Source of the DNA: a virus
Virus record (IMG/VR): IMGVR_UViG_3300025889_000083
Coordinates: 40,149-104,148 of that record
Reading direction: 5' to 3' (one strand)
Length of the DNA stretch: 64,000 nucleotides
This document shows, one piece after another, positions 6,661 through 64,000 of the stretch. Within the stretch, counting starts at the first letter, position 1, and every line of letters starts with the position of its first letter. The translations under genes and the position numbers were made by a program. The notes under the pieces were generated by a model. It was not told the DNA's origin. It saw only the letters and a program-made list of their open reading frames with translations, and did no database searches.

Positions 6661-6998
6661 TATCGTGTAACGTTTTGAGTGACTCTTGCTACTCCTTGAA
6701 TTAGTCTTGTCATAGTATTTGTACTACTATTATACAATTCTAAATCATAGTAATATTTACCTGACGCAATATTTGCAGTTGTTGCATATGGTAAAGTCAT
6801 TTTAAAGACACCATTAGCTGCATCTGTTATTGAACAAGTAAATGTTGCTGTAAGAGTATCGGAAGAAGGCGTAGGACGTAGCTGTGCACTTGCCGTATGA
6901 CTAGACAAATTGATTGCTGTTCCATCTTGTGCTATTGCGATTTGGAGCGAGAAATCTGCTCCTTGGTCGATAACAATATCATAGTTTCCTGCTGCCAT
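6660..6998 (-). CDS. BppU-like fibre attachment/adaptor protein
   Basis: IDQGADF...INLS...GKYYYDLEL...RLIQG...VTR pattern; AGGAG RBS. Confidence 0.65.
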   Translation of the reverse strand: MAAGNYDIVIDQGADFSLQIAIAQDGTAINLSSHTASAQLRPTPSSDTLTATFTCSITDAANGVFKMTLPYATTANIASGKYYYDLELYNSSTNTMTRLIQGVARVTQNVTR

Positions 6999-7024
6999 TC
7001 TTAACTTATACTCCTATATGCTAA

Positions 7025-7053
7025 ATTATAACAAAATATAAGTGAGAAGTCAA
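7025..7053 (-). promoter_or_regulatory. sigma70-type promoter for downstream fibre cluster
   Basis: TTGACT-N17-TATAAT preceded by AAAAATAGTTC. Confidence 0.8.
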
Positions 7054-7077
7054 GAACTATTTTTGAGAGGTGTAAGA

Positions 7078-7275
7078 TTATTCTGTTGGTTTAGGATATT
7101 TATCCTTGACCGCTTTTAACTCTGTATAAAAACTTGAAGTCTTTGCGGTCTCACCCAATAGACCAGTATCAATAGCATGAAACAACTTATCAAATTGTTC
7201 CTTTAATTCTGGGTACTCACTTGCGCGAGATTCTGCATAAGTGTAATTTTTGCTAAGTGATATTTCTAGTGCCAT
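7078..7275 (-). CDS. small tail fibre assembly/chaperone-like protein
   Basis: R..EYP.L.EQ.D.LFH...AVKDKYPKP motif seen in marine phage tail clusters. Confidence 0.6.
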   Translation of the reverse strand: MALEISLSKNYTYAESRASEYPELKEQFDKLFHAIDTGLLGETAKTSSFYTELKAVKDKYPKPTE

Positions 7276-7685
7276 TACTTTGTAACCTCCAGTGTAAATG
7301 TTTTTGACTTATAGTTATCTTTTGATAAGATTACTGTATATCTTGTTGCTACTTGTGTTCCTGTAAATGTTATTGTGCCATCTGCTGGAACTGTTCCTTT
7401 GTTTACATTATCTACAGTAACGGTTGTTCCTTCTGGTAGTCCACTAAAACTTAATGTTCCATTAAGTGTAATACTGGTTGTAGATAGGTCTGGATTAAAA
7501 TTTCCATACTGTACTAATGCACCATCTGCTATATAATAATCATCAATAGATGGTAGTGTATCTACTATTACTTGTAAATAAGAATAGCCATGTTCGGCTT
7601 GTGCACTAATAGCAGAGGCGTCACAAGCTGCGACTGTCGCCCATGCAATTTTTCCGTTATTGTCATAAAAAATATTGTATTCCAT
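7275..7685 (-). CDS. hypothetical tail protein with C-terminal Ig/PEGA-like segment
   Basis: GLPEGTTVTVD...YTVILSKDNY; AGGAG RBS. Confidence 0.5.
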   Translation of the reverse strand: MEYNIFYDNNGKIAWATVAACDASAISAQAEHGYSYLQVIVDTLPSIDDYYIADGALVQYGNFNPDLSTTSITLNGTLSFSGLPEGTTVTVDNVNKGTVPADGTITFTGTQVATRYTVILSKDNYKSKTFTLEVTK

Positions 7686-7693
7686 TTATTCTC

Positions 7694-8563
7694 CTATGCG
7701 AATGGACTTGTTCCGTTATAAATTAAGTATGAATAGTAAATAGTTTCTTCTCCTCCAAATGCAGTATTGCTATATGCCATCCCATTCCATAAATTTTGGT
7801 ATCCTTCTTTATAATCATTACTAATTGTTAAATGTGTTGTATTTGTTGAAAAACTAACTCCAGAGTATCCTACTGTAATGCCATCTCCCACTGCCAGTCC
7901 GCCAACTGTTTCATATTCTTTATAATATCCACTATTTGTTAAAAATCCATATTGAGTTGTTGCTGGTACAATATCAGAGTCATAAGCTGGGTATACTTGT
8001 GAAGCATGTAAATCTCCTGCTCCTCCACTCAATGTAATTGTAGGTACTGGGCTATTTCCGCCGTATTTTGGAACATTTGTAATTGTTATACTCGTTATAC
8101 TACCACCTGAAATAGTTGCATATCCTGTAGCCTGAACTGTTCCTCCAGCTCCTGTATAAGCAACTCCACCCGTAGCTGTAAATGGTATTGTTGAACCTAC
8201 ATATCCTGATCCAGCATTTGTAATACTTACGTTTGCACTTCCAAAAGTGTAGTAATCAGTAAAAAATGGTACATACATACTTGCCACACTTACAGTTGCA
8301 GTATTAGACGGACTAGACTCATTTATGTCATCTGGAAAACAATACGTAACGCTTGCATACGGTTTAAAACCTAATCCATGAGAAAAACTTCTTGTGCCTC
8401 CTGGACTTAGTATTCCTTGTCCTTTAGTAACAGTATTAAAACCTTTTACAGCATTTGAGTCAAATACCAAAGAAGAACTTGTACTCGCAACATTTTGTCC
8501 TTCTCTACTAATAAAGATTCCGTAGTCACTGCCTCTATTTCCTATTAAAACTCTATTTGCCAT
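7694..8563 (-). CDS. tail tip accessory protein (paralog 3)
   Basis: N-terminal RVLIG...GIFISR.G..V......LVFDS shared with the two upstream genes; ITNAGSGY repeats. Confidence 0.6.
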   Translation of the reverse strand: MANRVLIGNRGSDYGIFISREGQNVASTSSSLVFDSNAVKGFNTVTKGQGILSPGGTRSFSHGLGFKPYASVTYCFPDDINESSPSNTATVSVASMYVPFFTDYYTFGSANVSITNAGSGYVGSTIPFTATGGVAYTGAGGTVQATGYATISGGSITSITITNVPKYGGNSPVPTITLSGGAGDLHASQVYPAYDSDIVPATTQYGFLTNSGYYKEYETVGGLAVGDGITVGYSGVSFSTNTTHLTISNDYKEGYQNLWNGMAYSNTAFGGEETIYYSYLIYNGTSPFA

Positions 8564-43926: not shown

Positions 43927-44050
43927 CGTCCATGTATTTGCCCCAGAGGTATTTAGCCCCTACGTATGCACCTCCTAAAATGCTTGCCCAGATAACTAGG
44001 CTAAATAAATATTTAAATAATGTGTATGGTAATAAAATAAATTCTATCAT
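43913..44050 (-). CDS. small membrane protein (45 aa)
   Basis: MIEFILLPYTLFKYLFSLVIWASILGG...; ATGA overlap with terS stop. Confidence 0.6.
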   Translation of the reverse strand: MIEFILLPYTLFKYLFSLVIWASILGGAYVGAKYLWGKYMDGEDI

Positions 44051-44511
44051 GTTTTGTCCTGTAATAATCGTTCCATTAACTTGCCGTAATTTCCCTGACC
44101 GAATGGTAATTCTCCATTTATCTGCACATTCGTCTGGTTTTTAATATTAGAGGCTTTGGCTTTCTCAAGTTCTGCCATTGCCTTGATCTCATCCATGCGC
44201 ATCTTGTGCGCTAGGCTTAGTAGATCTACGACATCCTTATTAGTGTAAACTTGACTTTCTTCTGCTTCTTCTAGTTTCTGTTCTATTATATCGTCAAGTT
44301 TATTTGCAATTTTAAATCTATTGCGATATCCTGTGTCCAGATAGACTTGATCGATATACTGGCGAACTTCTCTTTTATTGAGTAGATCTTGTACAGTATT
44401 TTCATCAAGTTTAAGTCGTAAACAAACTGACTGAACATTTCCCAGTTCTAAATAACAGTTCGCTACTTCTAAGCCTTCTGGAGACATTCTTGTTGCGATT
44501 TCATTTTTCAT
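44047..44511 (-). CDS. terS: terminase small subunit (T5-like)
   Basis: MSPEGLEVANCYL; REVRQYID.VYLDTGYRNR; KLEEAEES; NQTNVQIN...NYGKLM. Confidence 0.85.
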   Translation of the reverse strand: MKNEIATRMSPEGLEVANCYLELGNVQSVCLRLKLDENTVQDLLNKREVRQYIDQVYLDTGYRNRFKIANKLDDIIEQKLEEAEESQVYTNKDVVDLLSLAHKMRMDEIKAMAELEKAKASNIKNQTNVQINGELPFGQGNYGKLMERLLQDKT

Positions 44512-45812: not shown

Positions 45813-45880
45813 TTGACTCACCCTAAAATTCATAAATGAATTTTAGGGTGTGTTTCGCTTTTTGTCAATAGATTTTTTAA
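45813..45880 (-). repeat. ~65-bp direct repeat: promoter with -10 inside a 32-bp palindrome, copy 1
   Basis: CACCCTAAAATTCAT-AA-ATGAATTTTAGGGTG; minus-strand TTGACA-N17-TAAAAT; second copy at 48134-48200, variant palindrome near 45940-45967. Confidence 0.9.
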
Positions 45881-47510: not shown

Positions 47511-47550
47511 TTATCCACAAAAAAACGACTTACTAACAAGGTTATCCACA
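47511..47550 (+). promoter_or_regulatory. two DnaA boxes
   Basis: TTATCCACA at 47511-47519 and 47542-47550. Confidence 0.8.
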
Positions 47551-47647: not shown

Positions 47648-47727
47648 AGCCCAAATTAACCAAAAAAATAATTTAAAAATATTTAAAAAAACGCTTGACG
47701 GCAGGGTTAAAATTTGAGAATATATAC

Positions 47728-48076
47728 ATATCAGGACAGGGCAGAAAGCAACGGACTGAAAAGGAAAGCAGACGCCTTCCACCCAATGAGCAAAGACTCT
47801 TAGAGAAACTCAAAGGCTAGGAAACGCGGAGAAGCTACCGAGTAAATACCGACTTTCTACCCCTACTGATACGGAGATTATATCACAGATATAATTATGA
47901 TAAAAATCAAATAACAAAAGTGATTTTGATCTAGGGGAAAGAATTGTTAATCCTCAACCCTAAATCGAAACGCTAGAAAGAAACGGAAACATTAACGGAA
48001 ACTTAATCTAGCAAACTCCTCTCCTTAAAGAGAGAAAAAAGGCAGAACAAGAAATTGAACTGCCTTTTTTTTTTTT
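47728..48076 (+). ncRNA. candidate GGA-rich sRNA (CsrB/RsmZ-like)
   Basis: TTGACG at 47695 with weak -10; no ORF; 9 GGA motifs incl. 4 ACGGA; terminator at 3' end. Confidence 0.5.
48035..48076 (+). terminator. intrinsic terminator (possibly bidirectional)
   Basis: AAAAAAGGCAG...CTGCC followed by 12 T. Confidence 0.8.
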
Positions 48077-48133: not shown

Positions 48134-48200
48134 TTGACTCACCCTAAAATTCATAAATGAATTTTAGGGTGTGTTTCGGTTTTTGTCAATACCTTTTTAA
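48134..48200 (-). repeat. ~65-bp direct repeat: promoter with -10 inside a 32-bp palindrome, copy 2
   Basis: Near-identical to 45813-45880. Confidence 0.9.
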
Positions 48201-48353: not shown

Positions 48354-48413
48354 TTTCTGTGAGCTGGCGCGCGTGCCTGGCGGGGTCGCATAGTCTTTTT
48401 TTTTTATTGGCAC

Positions 48414-48445
48414 TTATCCACAGGTTATCCACAGACTTATCCACA
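48414..48445 (+). promoter_or_regulatory. three tandem DnaA boxes
   Basis: TTATCCACA at 48414, 48425, 48437. Confidence 0.85.
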
Positions 48446-49634: not shown

Positions 49635-49997
49635 ATGAAATGGTTAATAAATAAAATTTTTGGGAGAAATAAAACAATCATGGCAACAACTAATTACACA
49701 GACGAAATGGTATCATCAATGGTTTCAGCTTACGAGGCTAACCCATCAAGAGATACAGTAGATTCTCTAGCTTCACAATTTGGCAAGACTACTAGAAGTA
49801 TCATTGCTAAACTCAGCAGAGAAGGCGTATACCAAGCTCAACCAAGACTAACAAAGTCAGGCGAGCCAGTGGTTAGCAAAACAGAGTTAGTTTCTCAGAT
49901 CACCACTTTAACAGGTATCGAGTTCACTAACCTAGCTAAAGCAGGTAAGTCAGACTTACAAGCTCTAGTAGACTTCTTTACTGCCGAACAGCAGTAA
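49635..49997 (+). CDS. T5 A2/D3-like DNA-binding protein
   Basis: NYTDEM...LA..FGKT.RSIIAKLSREGVY...K.ELV..I...L.KA.K..L; own consensus promoter; start may be 49680. Confidence 0.7.
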   Translation: MKWLINKIFGRNKTIMATTNYTDEMVSSMVSAYEANPSRDTVDSLASQFGKTTRSIIAKLSREGVYQAQPRLTKSGEPVVSKTELVSQITTLTGIEFTNLAKAGKSDLQALVDFFTAEQQ

Positions 49998-50070
49998 GCA
50001 TAAGACCTCCTTATGAATAGTGTGGTGGGCACTTTAACCCACCAAGTCAGAAAATACTTCAAAGTTTTTC

Positions 50071-50099
50071 TTGACAAAAGGTTAAATTTCATTTATAAT
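50071..50099 (+). promoter_or_regulatory. consensus sigma70 promoter (tandem copy A)
   Basis: TTGACA-N17-TATAAT followed by ATACTTATATTTGAGA. Confidence 0.85.
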
Positions 50100-50231
50100 A
50101 TACTTATATTTGAGATTGAGAAAGATCAAAATTTCTCAAACGCAGGGTTGCTCAGTTCAAGGAAGAGCATTAAAGGATAATTCCTCAACAACGCCCAAAG
50201 CTACCTCCAAGAAAATACATCAAAATTTTTC

Positions 50232-50260
50232 TTGACAAGAGGTTAGACTTCGGATATAAT
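50232..50260 (+). promoter_or_regulatory. consensus sigma70 promoter (tandem copy B)
   Basis: TTGACA-N17-TATAAT followed by the same ATACTTATATTTGAGA. Confidence 0.85.
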
Positions 50261-50265
50261 ATACT

Positions 50266-51426
50266 TATATTTGAGAAGAAACAAGTTCTCGAATGACTTT
50301 TCGGAAAATGAGTTAATCTCTCTGTGAGTCGGACTTGTTTGCCTACCACTCAGGCGAAAGAAGTGGCGTAGTGTGAAATTCCGACAAAAGTTCACCCCAA
50401 TGGCTAACGGGTTAATACGCTCCTCATGATCGGGCAATAGAGGTTAATATTGCGACCCGTGATGTTCAGTAATCGTTATAGGACTGTTCCCCCTGCTCAT
50501 TAGGTGGTTATCAGAATGAGTACTTCGTGTGCGAGTATTGAAGGACACACCGAGTATATACGCTCGTCGATAGTATATCAGAACACCTGCTCTGAGATGC
50601 AGGTCAGATGCTCGGCATTTTATGCAGCGTTTTTCCAGAGAACTGTAGACTGTAGGAAAAACAGCACTCTTAAAAGAGTTTGCCCTAGTGGGTAATAGGA
50701 AAAAATAAATGTATCAGCTTCGGCGGTAAAATAATCCTTCCACAAATGCAGGCTCTTTTAAGAGTAAAACTCTTAGGCACTAACAGTTTCGGCTGTGAAT
50801 ACCTAGCCCACATTGCCTTAACGCAAGTAGTAGGACGAAGTAAGTGCCGCCCACATGTTGGCGTTATCTAAGTGCAAGTTTGACATTGTAAGCACTTGAC
50901 CTAAGTATGCAAATACAGGAACGAGCCAATGTCCTTGTGGTAAAAAACACGCTACTGGCAATGCCAACCGATACCTGAGAAGATCTATGGGTTGGCTCTC
51001 ACAAGGTGGAAACGCTGATGATGAGTAGCTATCTTCTCTTAGTAGCAACATGCAACGAAAGTGCCTATACGAGCAATGGGTGGACGAAGTAGTTCAGAGG
51101 ACGAGGCGAGATTCAGCTTTAGCTGTCAACCCCATCAAGTAATGTGAGTCCAGCGAAAAAACACCCTAATGACGGCACAGTTTATGGAACATGGGTGCTT
51201 GCAACCCCACGACCAAAAGTCGACTATAATATGAGTGAAATACTGTAGCAAATGCGAAACACGACTCTGACAGTGATAAAACAACGGGCATATTTTTTTA
51301 GACATTCAGTTTTACATAGCCTAAATAAAAACTAATCAAAATCAAAAAACGCGGTTTGAACCCTATGATGGAAAAGAAGTGTGAGTTGACGGACAACATC
51401 ACTCCCCTGCCTCATAGGGTTTTTTG
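50266..51426 (+). ncRNA. candidate large structured non-coding RNA (~1.15 kb)
   Basis: Consensus promoter, no credible ORF, more than 10 nested helices with plus-strand G-U pairs, UUCG loops, terminal CCCTATGA/TCATAGGG stem + U tract. Confidence 0.7.
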
Positions 51427-51478
51427 TTTTCCCTAAGATATTCACATCAAAATTTTCACCCCACATCTAAAAAATTTC

Positions 51479-51507
51479 TTGACAAAATTCCTTAACTCCT
51501 GTATAAT
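51479..51507 (+). promoter_or_regulatory. consensus early promoter
   Basis: TTGACA-N17-TATAAT upstream of AAGGAG RBS. Confidence 0.85.
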
Positions 51508-51531
51508 ATTACTTATATTAAGGAGAAAAAT

Positions 51532-51732
51532 ATGAACTTAAATATTATGCGAAAAGATACCATAGAGCTATTAGCACATCAGTATGATGTCGGTGCTTAT
51601 GGGCGTGCCTGCAGAAAAGAACTTCGTAGGCGAAAAAATATAGGTTTCTGGCTAGGTCCGATTGTATCACCTGTCAAAATGAAAGAAGAACGCGAGTCCA
51701 CAGTAGGAACTGTTAGGGTGGTGCGTAAGTGA
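51532..51732 (+). CDS. hypothetical protein
   Basis: AAGGAG RBS. Confidence 0.6.
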   Translation: MNLNIMRKDTIELLAHQYDVGAYGRACRKELRRRKNIGFWLGPIVSPVKMKEERESTVGTVRVVRK

Positions 51733-52069: not shown

Positions 52070-52294
52070 ATGCCAGCTAAATACAGAGAAAGTGAAAGGA
52101 CTAACTTCAGAAAAAGAGGCGGTCCGAACATAAAAGCTAAACAGTATAAACACTTTTATTTAAAGTGTGCGACTAAAGAAGCACTCTTTGAGGAGATCAA
52201 CAGATATGGTGTAAAACCGAAGATCAAACAAAAGTGCGTAAACGAATTAATTCGTAGGGGAGTAAAGATAGTATGGACTACACCACAACAGTAA
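52070..52294 (+). CDS. hypothetical basic protein
   Basis: AGGAGG RBS; K.KQKC.NEL.RRG. Confidence 0.6.
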   Translation: MPAKYRESERTNFRKRGGPNIKAKQYKHFYLKCATKEALFEEINRYGVKPKIKQKCVNELIRRGVKIVWTTPQQ

Positions 52295-62885: not shown

Positions 62886-63237
62886 TAGAAATGAAGTAAA
62901 CATTGATCTGGACAAGTATATGGCATTGCTCGATAAACTCGACAAAGCCGAAGATACTATCAGTGATATGAAGGCAGAAGCGGAAGCAGCTAGAAAACAA
63001 CTTGCTCCTCCCAAGAGAAAGTTTATTGATTTGTTTTTAGATGACAATGATATAAATGAAAAGTCTATTATTGGATTCGTTTCATTTGCTTTTATGTGTG
63101 CCTTTGCAGTATGCGATTTAATCACAGCATTTTGGGGAATGGAATTAGTAATATCAGACACAGTTTATACTTCGCTAGTGGTGGTAACACTCGGTGCATT
63201 TGGTATAAGCGAGGCAGGAAAAGCATTTGGAAAATAG
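62866..63237 (+). CDS. coiled-coil + two-TM membrane protein (holin candidate)
   Basis: NDINEKSIIGFVSF...VTLGAFGI. Confidence 0.55.
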   Translation: MEATQNDRNEVNIDLDKYMALLDKLDKAEDTISDMKAEAEAARKQLAPPKRKFIDLFLDDNDINEKSIIGFVSFAFMCAFAVCDLITAFWGMELVISDTVYTSLVVVTLGAFGISEAGKAFGK

Positions 63238-63240
63238 TTC

Positions 63241-63269
63241 TTGACAAGAAGTAATAAATTTAGTATAAT
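63241..63269 (+). promoter_or_regulatory. consensus promoter
   Basis: AAAATAGTTC-TTGACA-N17-TATAAT. Confidence 0.85.
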
Positions 63270-63277
63270 ATACACTT

Positions 63278-63877
63278 ATGAATTTATTTTATCTTGATGA
63301 AGATTTTGACAAGTGTGCTGAGTACCATGTAGACAAGCACATAGTAAAAATGCCGCTCGAAGCAGCACAGCTTTTGTGTACTGCTATTTGGGTAGATCAT
63401 GTGCTAGGCTTTGTACCTCGTGCTTTGAACAAAGAAGAAACCAAAGCACTCAATGAGGAAAAAGCTAAGATCAAAGATTTACCTATGGAGGAACGACCTT
63501 TGACTCCATACTTGCCAATGATGTACAACCATCCTTGCACAATATGGACTAGGTCGTCTCTCGATAACTTTGAGTGGACTCACTGCTATGCCAATGCGTT
63601 GAATGACGAGTATCATTATCGCTATGGCAAACAACACAAATCGGTAGTAGAAGTAATCAATAAACTGCCCGAGCCAAAGAATATGCCTCGATTGGGGCAA
63701 ACACCTTTTGGTATGGCAATGCCAGACGAGTTGAAAGACGAGAATGATGTTGTGGGCAGTTACCGATTGTATTACCATACTGATAAGGCAACATTTGCCG
63801 CATGGTCACATCGTGACAAGCCATACTGGTGGGATGAAGGTCTCGCATGGTATGACAAGAGAATAACAGCTAAATGA
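63278..63877 (+). CDS. pyrimidine dimer DNA glycosylase / endonuclease V-like protein
   Basis: MNLFYLD....CA..H.DKH.VKM.LE.AQLL.TA; NHPC..W; EY..RYGK.H; AMPD. Confidence 0.8.
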   Translation: MNLFYLDEDFDKCAEYHVDKHIVKMPLEAAQLLCTAIWVDHVLGFVPRALNKEETKALNEEKAKIKDLPMEERPLTPYLPMMYNHPCTIWTRSSLDNFEWTHCYANALNDEYHYRYGKQHKSVVEVINKLPEPKNMPRLGQTPFGMAMPDELKDENDVVGSYRLYYHTDKATFAAWSHRDKPYWWDEGLAWYDKRITAK

Positions 63878-64000
63878 AAACATACGAAATAAATGGTAAA
63901 AGAGTTACCTTTCCAGAAAGTTGGACAGAAGAACAATGCCAAGCATGGATTAAAAAGGCAACTGGAGATCTAGTGCTTCGCAGAAATTTAAGAATGATTA
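63874..64000 (+). CDS. hypothetical protein (truncated by window end)
   Basis: ATGA overlap; open to end. Confidence 0.45.
   Translation, partial: MKTYEINGKRVTFPESWTEEQCQAWIKKATGDLVLRRNLRMI

Follow-up and report, generated by a model that had tools for sequence, protein, structure and literature searches.

The window analysed here (64,000 nt of the virus record IMGVR_UViG_3300025889_000083) contains about 1.16 kb that lies between a promoter and a terminator and holds no evident gene, and the question it raises is whether this region encodes an RNA, of what class, and for what use. An earlier note, made from the letters alone, had proposed a large, highly structured RNA that may be a new class.

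The perfect TTGACA-N17-TATAAT promoter placed by that note at 50232-50260 was confirmed; perfect sigma-70 sites numbered seven in the window vs. 0.06 expected by chance. This promoter is part of a duplicated 67-nt cassette, whose two copies are 88% identical and lie 161 nt apart (P1, 50049-50115, + strand, with the -35 at 50071-76 and the -10 at 50094-99; P2, 50210-50276, + strand, with the -35 at 50232-37 and the -10 at 50255-60), so that the RNA has tandem promoters. The arrangement of promoter and unit at P2 was also seen in relatives, and the start of the RNA is inferred at about 50267, downstream of P2. At the other end, CCCTATGA (51361-68) and TCATAGGG (51412-19) form a stem with T6GT4 downstream of it, as had been read before; the intrinsic terminator (51360-51430, + strand) consists of the stem 51360-67/51413-20 and U6GU4, with a shorter alternative stem at 51405-19, and a hairpin followed by a T-run forms the 3' end in every family member. 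The lack of an open reading frame also held, since no + strand ORF longer than 63 aa was present in 50000-51530 and none of the short ORFs was conserved. G+C content was 42% in the non-coding RNA; elsewhere in the window, most 1-kb bins had about 36-37%. The next perfect promoter (51479-51507, + strand) drives the downstream early genes (66-aa ORF from 51532); as these genes have a perfect promoter of their own, the RNA is a separate unit. Here and in all relatives the unit has its own promoter and terminator on the same strand, each member showing a single promoter pair and a single terminator, and the directions of promoter and terminator indicated the + strand. The unit is single-copy in this genome. 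It has no internal repeat array, which excluded CRISPR-like and ToxI-like readings. We conclude from promoter, terminator, ORF and covariation evidence that 50267 to about 51425 (+ strand) is a stand-alone gene for a non-coding RNA of about 1.16 kb. There are no transcript data, so the start, end, abundance and timing of the RNA are all inferred, and the only grounds for the proposal of very early synthesis are the consensus promoters of host type and the position in the early arm.

Substitutions of the codon type, which according to the earlier note would have refuted a structured RNA, were absent. Between the member in the window (WIN) and L020, substitutions were distributed 76/76/65 by position modulo 3 and the 16 indels (1-70 nt; e.g., 1, 2, 4, 8, 26, and 70 nt) were mostly not multiples of three, and variable columns in cluster 1 were distributed 205/196/192; neither comparison gave any trace of ORF remnants or codon periodicity. 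In the alignment of WIN-type sequences (A1), 43 of the 297 predicted pairs were compensatory vs. 9.7 ± 3.2 (maximum 14) in 22 column shuffles, and the folding energy was -226.8 vs. -149.1 ± 8.3 in the same shuffles; the independent cluster 1 displayed 43 compensatory pairs vs. 14 ± 2.6 in shuffles. Compensatory changes well above shuffled controls indicated that the helices are under selection for RNA structure, and whole hairpins and domains were gained and lost among family members. Most helix measures compared in A1 were somewhat better on the + strand than on the - strand (energy -226.8 vs. -220.1, compensatory pairs 43 vs. 29), and the strand-specific loops UUCG and GNRA appeared on the + strand. 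The asymmetry of G-U pairs pointed out earlier was found in the consensus (227 G-U vs. 14 A-C cells), but this test is biased because the structure was folded on the + strand. On neither strand did the single sequence fold with a better energy than its dinucleotide shuffles (z = -0.97 for + and -1.77 for -), which the earlier note would have counted against the RNA; we did not take it as a refutation because the covariation was strong.

Compensatory support was confined to local domains spanning 100 nt or less, all on the + strand; the helices read by eye in the earlier note were mostly recovered with small shifts, given below in brackets. The 5' hairpin domain (50280-50339) comprises 50280-88/50331-39 (two compensatory pairs; previously 50279-88/50331-40), 50295-305/50321-30 and 50310-12/50318-20 (one compensatory pair), and the leader is partly conserved in nine clusters. 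It is followed by an 11-bp hairpin (50365-50404) with three compensatory pairs (GUGAA/UUCAC, GUAGA/UCUAC, and GUAGG/CCUAC), a 9-bp hairpin (50431-50459) with two and a 7-bp hairpin (50527-50550) with three. Helix 50585-90/50599-604 was confirmed as an inserted hairpin, which WIN and L153 alone possess, and helix 50550-57/50608-15, read as enclosing it, was absent from the covariation-supported consensus. The branched domain (50776-50848) is formed by 50776-81/50843-48, the UUCG hairpin 50783-87/50792-96 (previously 50783-96), 50802-05/50831-34 and 50810-16/50823-28 (four compensatory pairs); this last, local pairing takes the place of a nested domain once drawn from 50811-17/50957-63 and further inner pairs, for which no support was obtained. 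The domain closed by 50851-55/50936-40 (50851-50940) contains 50869-79/50888-98 (four compensatory pairs) and 50900-08/50913-19, whose loop is GCAA, GAAA or AUAA. A dispensable domain (50951-51046; helices 50951-57/51040-46, 50963-73/50986-96, previously 50963-69/50990-96, and 50998-51008/51013-25 with a GAAA loop) is cleanly missing in L087 and L117. Toward the 3' end there are a hairpin at 51233-51267 (inner helix 51244-47/51253-56, two compensatory pairs) and an A/U-stem hairpin at 51342-51359, whose loop (51347-54) shows the palindrome CGCG (AAACGCGG or AAAGCGCG), conserved in the WIN type and found only there. Four long-range helices were predicted (50270-79/51293-302, 50462-67/51187-92, 50508-24/51174-86, and 50609-26/51051-75), none of them with a compensatory pair, and a compact global fold is therefore not demonstrated. 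Thus, the description of the RNA as highly structured stands for a chain of local stem-loop domains and not for the long-range helices.

Outside the modules the sequence mostly diverges too fast for alignment between clusters, and when clusters were compared, conservation did not extend beyond the leader, module 2, and the core. Between clusters only three modules, all short, are conserved: an apical element of 22 nt that is invariant, a module built on an A-rich internal loop, and another hairpin. They occur independently of one another among clusters, the order from module 2 to the core being constant. The core hairpin domain (51078-51166, + strand) contains 51078-82/51162-66 (three compensatory pairs), 51089-102/51139-54, 51103-08/51131-36 and 51114-17/51122-25, and includes the invariant element (51108-51129, + strand), an internal-loop hairpin reading G(A/C)GAUU-CAGC-UUUA-GCUG-UCAA. 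The two closing pairs of the core were formed in 41/41 sequences with three to four pair types, and the core stem was compensated in L003, L021, and L022.

The second module, module 2 (50666-50765, + strand), is enclosed by a 16-bp helix (50666-81/50750-65; 18 bp, 50666-83/50748-65, in the earlier reading) with seven compensatory pairs. Its inner helices are P1 (50688-92/50739-43), P2 (50697-99/50736-38), P3 (50712-15/50725-28) and P4 (50717-18/50723-24), with an A-rich internal loop at 50700-11 (AAAAAAUAAAUG) opposite 50729-35 (AAAUAAU), a bulged A at 50716 and a UUCG loop at 50719-22. In the covariation analysis of this module 225/225 cells were paired and 6/9 pairs were compensatory, and 0/500 shuffles were as good. 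Across the family, module 2 presents an asymmetric A-rich internal loop between covarying helices and either a UUCG or a K-turn-like cap. The K-turn-like hairpin occurs in many members, with inserts that read AGC-NNU-GA ... (G/U/C)A-GC and a canonical GA on both strands in about half of them; WIN has the short UUCG form, without a K-turn. That the A-rich loops might be (A-R-N)n sites for Hfq is a sub-hypothesis only, with no binding data behind it. Module 3 (50618-50665, + strand) has the form CUUUAUGCAGCGUUUU-hairpin-AAAACAGC, with helix 50627-35/50656-65 (one compensatory pair; previously 50629-36/50655-62), and is common to WIN, clusters 3, 8, and 11, and L023. Three likenesses to known motifs were discarded as probably fortuitous, since their conservation does not extend across clusters: the word CGCUCUUAAC upstream of the core in cluster 3, which we take to be boxA-like, the sarcin-ricin word AGAGGAC, and an 11-nt tetraloop receptor.

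Exact copies of the 18-mer at 51111-51128 are present in 36 contigs of IMG/VR, and at least 119 stretches from marine metagenomes contain it too. Among the matches listed, 127 were non-redundant members with the 22-nt context, forming 17 sequence clusters, and the RNA measured about 0.75-1.5 kb across members (median about 1.07 kb). In related phages the RNAs occupy the same promoter-to-terminator slot of T5-like genomes; most related loci kept the layout of a promoter, about 1 kb without a + strand ORF, a terminator and the next promoter, and most had the same 120-aa gene as upstream neighbour. In the more distant relatives L026-L030 proteins replace the RNA slot. The flanking phage proteins were far more diverged (40-75% identity) than the 22-nt motif, which is invariant.

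No Rfam 15 covariance model, those of GOLLD, ROOL, OLE, HEARO, and raiA included, matched in the window at the gathering score, and a search of 49900-51600 gave chance-level matches only (E > 2); in 14 diverse member loci Rfam returned only tRNAs, none of them inside the units. That the earlier note did not recognise the RNA as tmRNA, RNase P RNA or an intron was borne out: for tmRNA and tRNA-like RNAs ARAGORN found no gene in the window and Rfam nothing, and there was no match to catalytic-core models of RNase P RNA, group I/II introns or small ribozymes in Rfam. When 50,697 records of cultured phages were searched by blastn with the complete unit, with the core and with module 2, nothing meaningful was obtained, and the flanking 120-aa protein had no match there by tblastn. 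The 22-mer had 0 matches in 185,579 prokaryote species, each represented by a single genome, so that the RNA was not copied from any host or prophage RNA contained in that collection. The family is undescribed, in keeping with the new class considered at the outset, and more than 100 uncultured marine T5-like phage contigs carry a member.

The large terminase had its best matches in My1, phiR2-01, Slocum, and similar phages (48-50% identity), My1 being classified in Demerecviridae. The genome is that of an uncultured marine T5-like siphophage, and the RNA gene lies in its rightward early arm. A pre-early (first-step-transfer) location of the T5 type was considered and did not hold: no exact terminal repeat was found in the contig, the gene orientation differs from that in My1, where the terminal-repeat genes are on the strand of the terminase genes, the two being here on opposite strands, and neither A1 nor dmp was found near the unit. 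In the terminal repeat of My1 there is a 1-kb gap without ORFs, and a 180-nt piece of it is conserved among 481 T5-like records; the gap is composed of repeated promoter-like and DnaA-box-like units without module 2, and was judged unrelated rather than an equivalent RNA of cultured T5-like phages.

As to what the RNA does, we see an even chance that it is a trans-acting early scaffold or decoy, a function that is inferred. Host RNA polymerase would transcribe it strongly in early infection. Acting in trans, it would be a modular scaffold or decoy whose invariant modules are docking sites for one or more conserved partners, none of which has been identified, and whose fast-evolving helices are spacers. 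The partner, which could be sequestered or re-directed during host takeover, would be a slowly evolving host factor sooner than a phage protein, because the motif has stayed invariant while the flanking phage proteins have drifted. The search for a partner was uninformative for the neighbouring small proteins compared with Pfam and PHROGs and for the proteins that replace the slot in L026-L030; the syntenic basic protein p74 gave no informative family in an Atlas look-up, and its AlphaFold model (pLDDT 70.8) no informative fold with Foldseek against the PDB.

An assembly made of RNA only, a homo-oligomer (cage or dimer) like ROOL, GOLLD, and OLE in which the invariant modules are inter-subunit or tertiary contacts, seems unlikely to us but keeps some standing. 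A-rich loops suit A-minor contacts, the RNA is large, ornate and phage-borne with no obligate protein neighbour, and the palindrome in the 3' hairpin loop of the WIN type would fit, but it is limited to that type, and no long-range or tertiary pair has covariation support. GOLLD is likewise phage-encoded with a conserved and a variable part (PMC12286853), but its core and that of ROOL are well conserved whereas the present sequences are mostly unalignable between clusters. Clusters of tRNA genes occur about 4 kb downstream of the unit in some relatives (L020, L060, and L105), but the window has no tRNA gene.

The confinement of all compensatory support to local domains, together with modules that are shuffled, lost and gained independently among clusters, could also suit a polycistronic carrier of 1.16 kb cut by host RNases into several small stable RNAs. 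We regard such a precursor as quite doubtful, given the constant order of module 2 and core, the single promoter pair and single terminator in every unit, and the failure to find tRNA-like or RNase P-type processing signals.

For a cis-acting RNA, either a put/nut-like antitermination element or a persistent RNA-DNA hybrid that primes replication as ColE1 RNA II does, the strong terminator and the separate perfect promoter of the next genes are obstacles, and a kilobase of varied hairpins far exceeds the needs of known put/nut sites. The unit does follow strong early promoters directly and precede the early gene cluster, with small arginine-rich proteins encoded just downstream and DnaA boxes 2-3 kb upstream; it has, however, no AT-rich unwinding element or origin signature, and the boxA-like word, a lead only, is not conserved outside cluster 3. 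This reading appears very improbable. That there is no functional RNA at all, only a DNA-level element (for protein binding or recombination) or, between the promoters, genes in decay, can hardly be maintained, for although the invariant block of 20-22 nt could be a DNA site and the single-sequence z-score is unremarkable, compensatory changes in dozens of helices of two independent clusters are far above shuffles, indels remove or add hairpins as wholes, the loops are strand-specific, every member has a terminator, and coding remnants are lacking.

Large structured RNAs of bacteria and phages are few to our knowledge (OLE, GOLLD, ROOL, HEARO, and raiA), most of them without a known function, and each earlier new class opened structural and functional work. 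The present family is larger than any of these five and is common in ocean metagenomes. Its evolutionary pattern is unusual, with invariant short modules on a fast-changing modular scaffold, and points to specific partners that could be fished out; the 22-nt element is a ready probe to find a culturable phage with the RNA. The early location, driven by host polymerase, suggests that abundant long non-coding RNAs may be a means by which lytic phages take over their hosts, in analogy with herpesviruses in eukaryotes. We consider it probable that this is the first kilobase-size ornate non-coding RNA class, larger than GOLLD, that is specific to a widespread group of uncultured marine T5-like phages and, as infection begins, is transcribed from host promoters of the strongest type, as a host-takeover device capturing a conserved host machine through the 22-nt hairpin and the A-rich loop, or as a self-assembling RNA particle.

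Among known systems, GOLLD is a large, elaborate non-coding RNA of unknown function encoded by phages and prophages and present in marine metagenomes, in which, as here, a conserved part is joined to a less conserved one (PMC12286853). It differs in size (just over 800 nt vs. the median given above and up to about 1.5 kb), its Rfam model gave no match even at E ≤ 10, only three short modules are conserved here, no tRNA island adjoins the unit in the window, and the present RNA belongs to an early sigma-70-driven unit of T5-like lytic phages. ROOL (Rumen-Originating, Ornate, Large) is similarly a large structured phage-borne RNA with no known protein partner or function, and reaches high expression in at least one host (PMC12286853). 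In contrast with the present RNA, which turns over quickly in sequence and has no pseudoknot or long-range pair with covariation support, ROOL is about 600-660 nt long, rich in pseudoknots and well conserved, and forms an octameric cage.

The phi29 pRNA and the bacterial 6S RNA are stand-alone RNAs, abundant or early, that bind one conserved protein machine via a conserved structure. They measure only about 120-190 nt, and the present RNA has no match to them in Rfam, no open-promoter-like bubble and, apart from the CGCG lead, no covarying intermolecular loops. OLE (ornate large extremophilic RNA) differs in being a chromosomal RNA of Bacillota, of about 600 nt and highly conserved in sequence, whereas the family described here has no Rfam match and no known partner proteins. 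One protein-binding motif of OLE is a K-turn, comparable to the K-turn-like hairpin in module 2 of many members. OLE works as a large RNA scaffold on which proteins bind to conserved motifs (PMC12054373; PMC12286853), and this protein-binding scaffold mechanism is the one proposed for the RNA of these marine phages.

The ~1.16-kb RNA unit represents a real and well-supported new family of large structured RNAs. Its anatomy as a transcription unit and its non-coding status could be demonstrated, as could its domain structure, the conservation of its modules and its synteny, whereas its function remains open. The promoter proposed in the earlier note at 50232-50260 proved to be real, being the second of two 67-nt cassettes that are 88% identical and 161 nt apart. 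The claimed lack of a coding frame also held, the longest plus-strand ORF within 50000-51530 having 63 aa, and the unit was closed, as predicted, by a hairpin (51360-51367/51413-51420) followed by a U tract; the next perfect promoter, at 51479, serves the genes downstream. The RNA was single-copy in this genome and its G+C content was higher (42%) than that of most of the window's other 1-kb bins (~36-37%).

The window comprises the final 64 kb of a 104,148-bp IMG/VR virus record. Its left 44.5 kb carried virion genes on the minus strand (major tail protein, major head protein/protease, portal and large terminase), the small terminase gene (44047-44511) being the last of this block. The top cultured-phage matches of the large terminase were T5-like phages, including My1, phiR2-01 and Slocum (48-50% identity); My1 is classified in Demerecviridae. 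A divergent, repeat-rich control region (44.5-49.2 kb) separated the small terminase gene from the early genes, and to its right small plus-strand genes were each preceded by a consensus promoter. Seven perfect TTGACA-N17-TATAAT sites occurred in the window vs. 0.06 expected, and further perfect plus-strand promoters appeared at genome positions 104, 3528, 5320, 14192, and 26667. The control region contained clustered perfect DnaA boxes (TTATCCACA; 47511-47550 and 48411-48445), three nearby copies of TGACAACGTTGTCA (~44649, 45911, and 48083) and two of the 32-bp palindrome CACCCTAAAATTCATAAATGAATTTTAGGGTG (45821-45852 and 48140-48171). Another ORF-poor plus-strand unit at 47695-48076 ended in a hairpin followed by 12 T (48042-48075), and more than one non-coding RNA may be encoded in the early arm. 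The contig ends (genome 1-857 and 103286-104148, the latter at window 63138-64000) were 78% identical across ~860 bp; judged from sequence alone, they are diverged paralogous copies and not an exact terminal repeat.

The unit is non-coding. The 217 substitutions between the window's copy and its relative L020 were spread evenly over the three codon positions (76/76/65), the 16 indels had sizes of 1, 2, 4, 6, 8, 26, and 70 nt, and indels in alignable relatives disrupted the window's short ORFs. Variable columns in the independent sequence cluster 1 were also similar by position (205/196/192).

Selection on RNA structure, as inferred in the earlier note, was upheld by covariation. RNAalifold, applied to nine alignable sequences (79-92% identity to the window's copy, 1277 columns), gave 297 pairs, 43 of them changed on both sides, as compared to 9.7 ± 3.2 (maximum 14) in 22 column shuffles preserving the pattern of each column; alignment energy was -226.8 vs. 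-149.1 ± 8.3 in shuffles. Cluster 1 (14 sequences) displayed 43 compensatory pairs vs. 14 ± 2.6. The folding z-score check failed to single out the unit, single-sequence energy being unremarkable (z = -0.97 and -1.77 for the plus and minus strands, respectively). Entire hairpins were gained or lost among the alignable sequences, with a 27-nt insert in the window's copy and L153, a 70-nt perfect hairpin in L020 and L083 types, and a 107-nt domain cleanly absent from L087 and L117. Compensatory support was confined to local domains spanning at most 100 nt, and the four long-range helices predicted in this consensus had no compensatory pairs. This indicated a chain of folded domains rather than a compact globule.

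Related viral loci (28) were collected through the 120-aa gene located just upstream, and most kept the same layout (gene, tandem promoters, ~1 kb without plus-strand ORF, hairpin plus T-run, next promoter). Only one aligned to the unit at full length by blastn. A 20-nt block was identical between units not otherwise alignable; the 18-mer ATTCAGCTTTAGCTGTCA appeared in 36 IMG/VR contigs and at least 119 metagenome stretches, with Tara Oceans origin evident from some contig names. After exclusion of 13 chance 18-mer matches without flanking context, at least 127 non-redundant family sequences remained. Full units (83, including five without the exact 18-mer) fell into 17 sequence clusters, with an estimated RNA length of 752-1505 nt (median 1065). 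The RNA was found neither among 50,697 cultured phage records nor in 185,579 prokaryote species (one genome each).

The only parts conserved in sequence across clusters were the leader, the module 2 segment at 50687-50745 and the core at 51094-51157. Module 2 begins with an outer helix, which is followed by a bulge of 4-5 nt and a helix of 3 bp (AGG/CCU, UCG/CGA, UUG/CAA, GGG/CCC, among others). Next come an internal loop with AAAAAAUAAAUG facing AAAUAAU, a 4-bp helix for which nine complementary versions occurred, a bulged A, and GC/GC. The cap is either a tetraloop (UUCG in 34 of the 46 members capped in this way) or an inserted hairpin of 15-56 nt, which is K-turn-like with NNU-GA at its start and (G/U/C)A at its end. 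In 25 seeds, all 225 cells were paired and six of nine pairs were compensatory, a result equalled by none of 500 shuffles; slid controls paired just 22-54%. This result calls for some caution, since the seeds had been chosen for at least 3/4 pairs in one helix. The core, G(A/C)GAUU-CAGC-UUUA-GCUG-UCAA, did not vary in 41 distinct contexts, in which its two closing pairs always formed, with 3-4 pair types; the inner stem was CAGU/ACUG in L003 and CAUGG/CCUG in L021 and L022. The module 2 covariance model found exactly one copy in the window and none in several core-bearing clusters. L023 (2828-3690) and L025 (1729-2711) carried ORF-free, promoter-to-terminator units in the same syntenic slot, lacking core and module 2 and having other 36-65-nt modules in common with family members. 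Modules thus occur independently, making the family a mosaic with constant module order, within a superfamily wider than the 18-mer-defined set. A weak module 2 match in L105 (1774-1887; 32.6 bits), ~1.3 kb downstream of its core hairpin, may mark a tandem second unit.

Host polymerase would be expected to drive early, high-level synthesis of an RNA that presumably acts in trans. Neighboring phage proteins were just 40-75% identical, in contrast with the invariant 22-nt element, and this suggests, from sequence comparison only, that the partner is highly conserved, a host machine being the simplest candidate. The same contrast favors a modular scaffold or decoy, to which we give roughly even chances. 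An oligomer made of RNA only is unlikely; its lead is a hairpin at 51342-51359 (A/U stem) with the palindrome CGCG in a loop that may be self-kissing, present only in the window's type; the loop has the sequence AAACGCGG in six relatives and AAAGCGCG in three. It is improbable that the transcript is a precursor of several small RNAs, very improbable that it acts in cis in antitermination or priming, and scarcely credible that it has no RNA function. The basic 74-aa protein encoded downstream of the RNA at 52070-52294 (MP.KFK..., KPK.RQKC.NEL.RRG) is a candidate partner by position only; its gene and the upstream 120-aa gene were kept in 15/17 clusters, and family and fold searches with the protein matched nothing. 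Pre-early (first-step-transfer) timing was unsupported: the contig lacked an exact terminal repeat, orientation was opposite to My1, and no A1 or dmp gene was found near the unit.

Consistent with the earlier failure to recognize a known class, Rfam 15 gave no match in the window at gathering score and only chance matches within the unit (E > 2); in 14 diverse member loci it detected only tRNAs, all outside the RNA units. ARAGORN found no gene in the window, which had no tRNA gene, and clusters of 1-4 tRNA genes lay ~4 kb downstream of the unit in L020 (10389-10705), L060 (4542-4874) and L105 (5814-5885). The terminal repeat of the cultured T5-like phage My1 of Pectobacterium includes a 1,028-bp gap (6991-8018) with neither ORF nor annotation, of which a ~180-nt piece is 70-80% conserved across 481 T5-like phage records, mostly unannotated; it was rejected as an equivalent RNA, being unrelated and resembling repeated promoter-like and DnaA-box-like units. 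Literature searches yielded no account of this RNA, and motifs reported in the accessible portion of a 2023 IMG/VR screen measured just 29-151 nt (PMC10690425). The closest known systems, GOLLD, ROOL, and OLE, are ornate RNAs of large size that form RNA-only multimers and whose functions are unknown; phages carry two of the three (PMC12286853).
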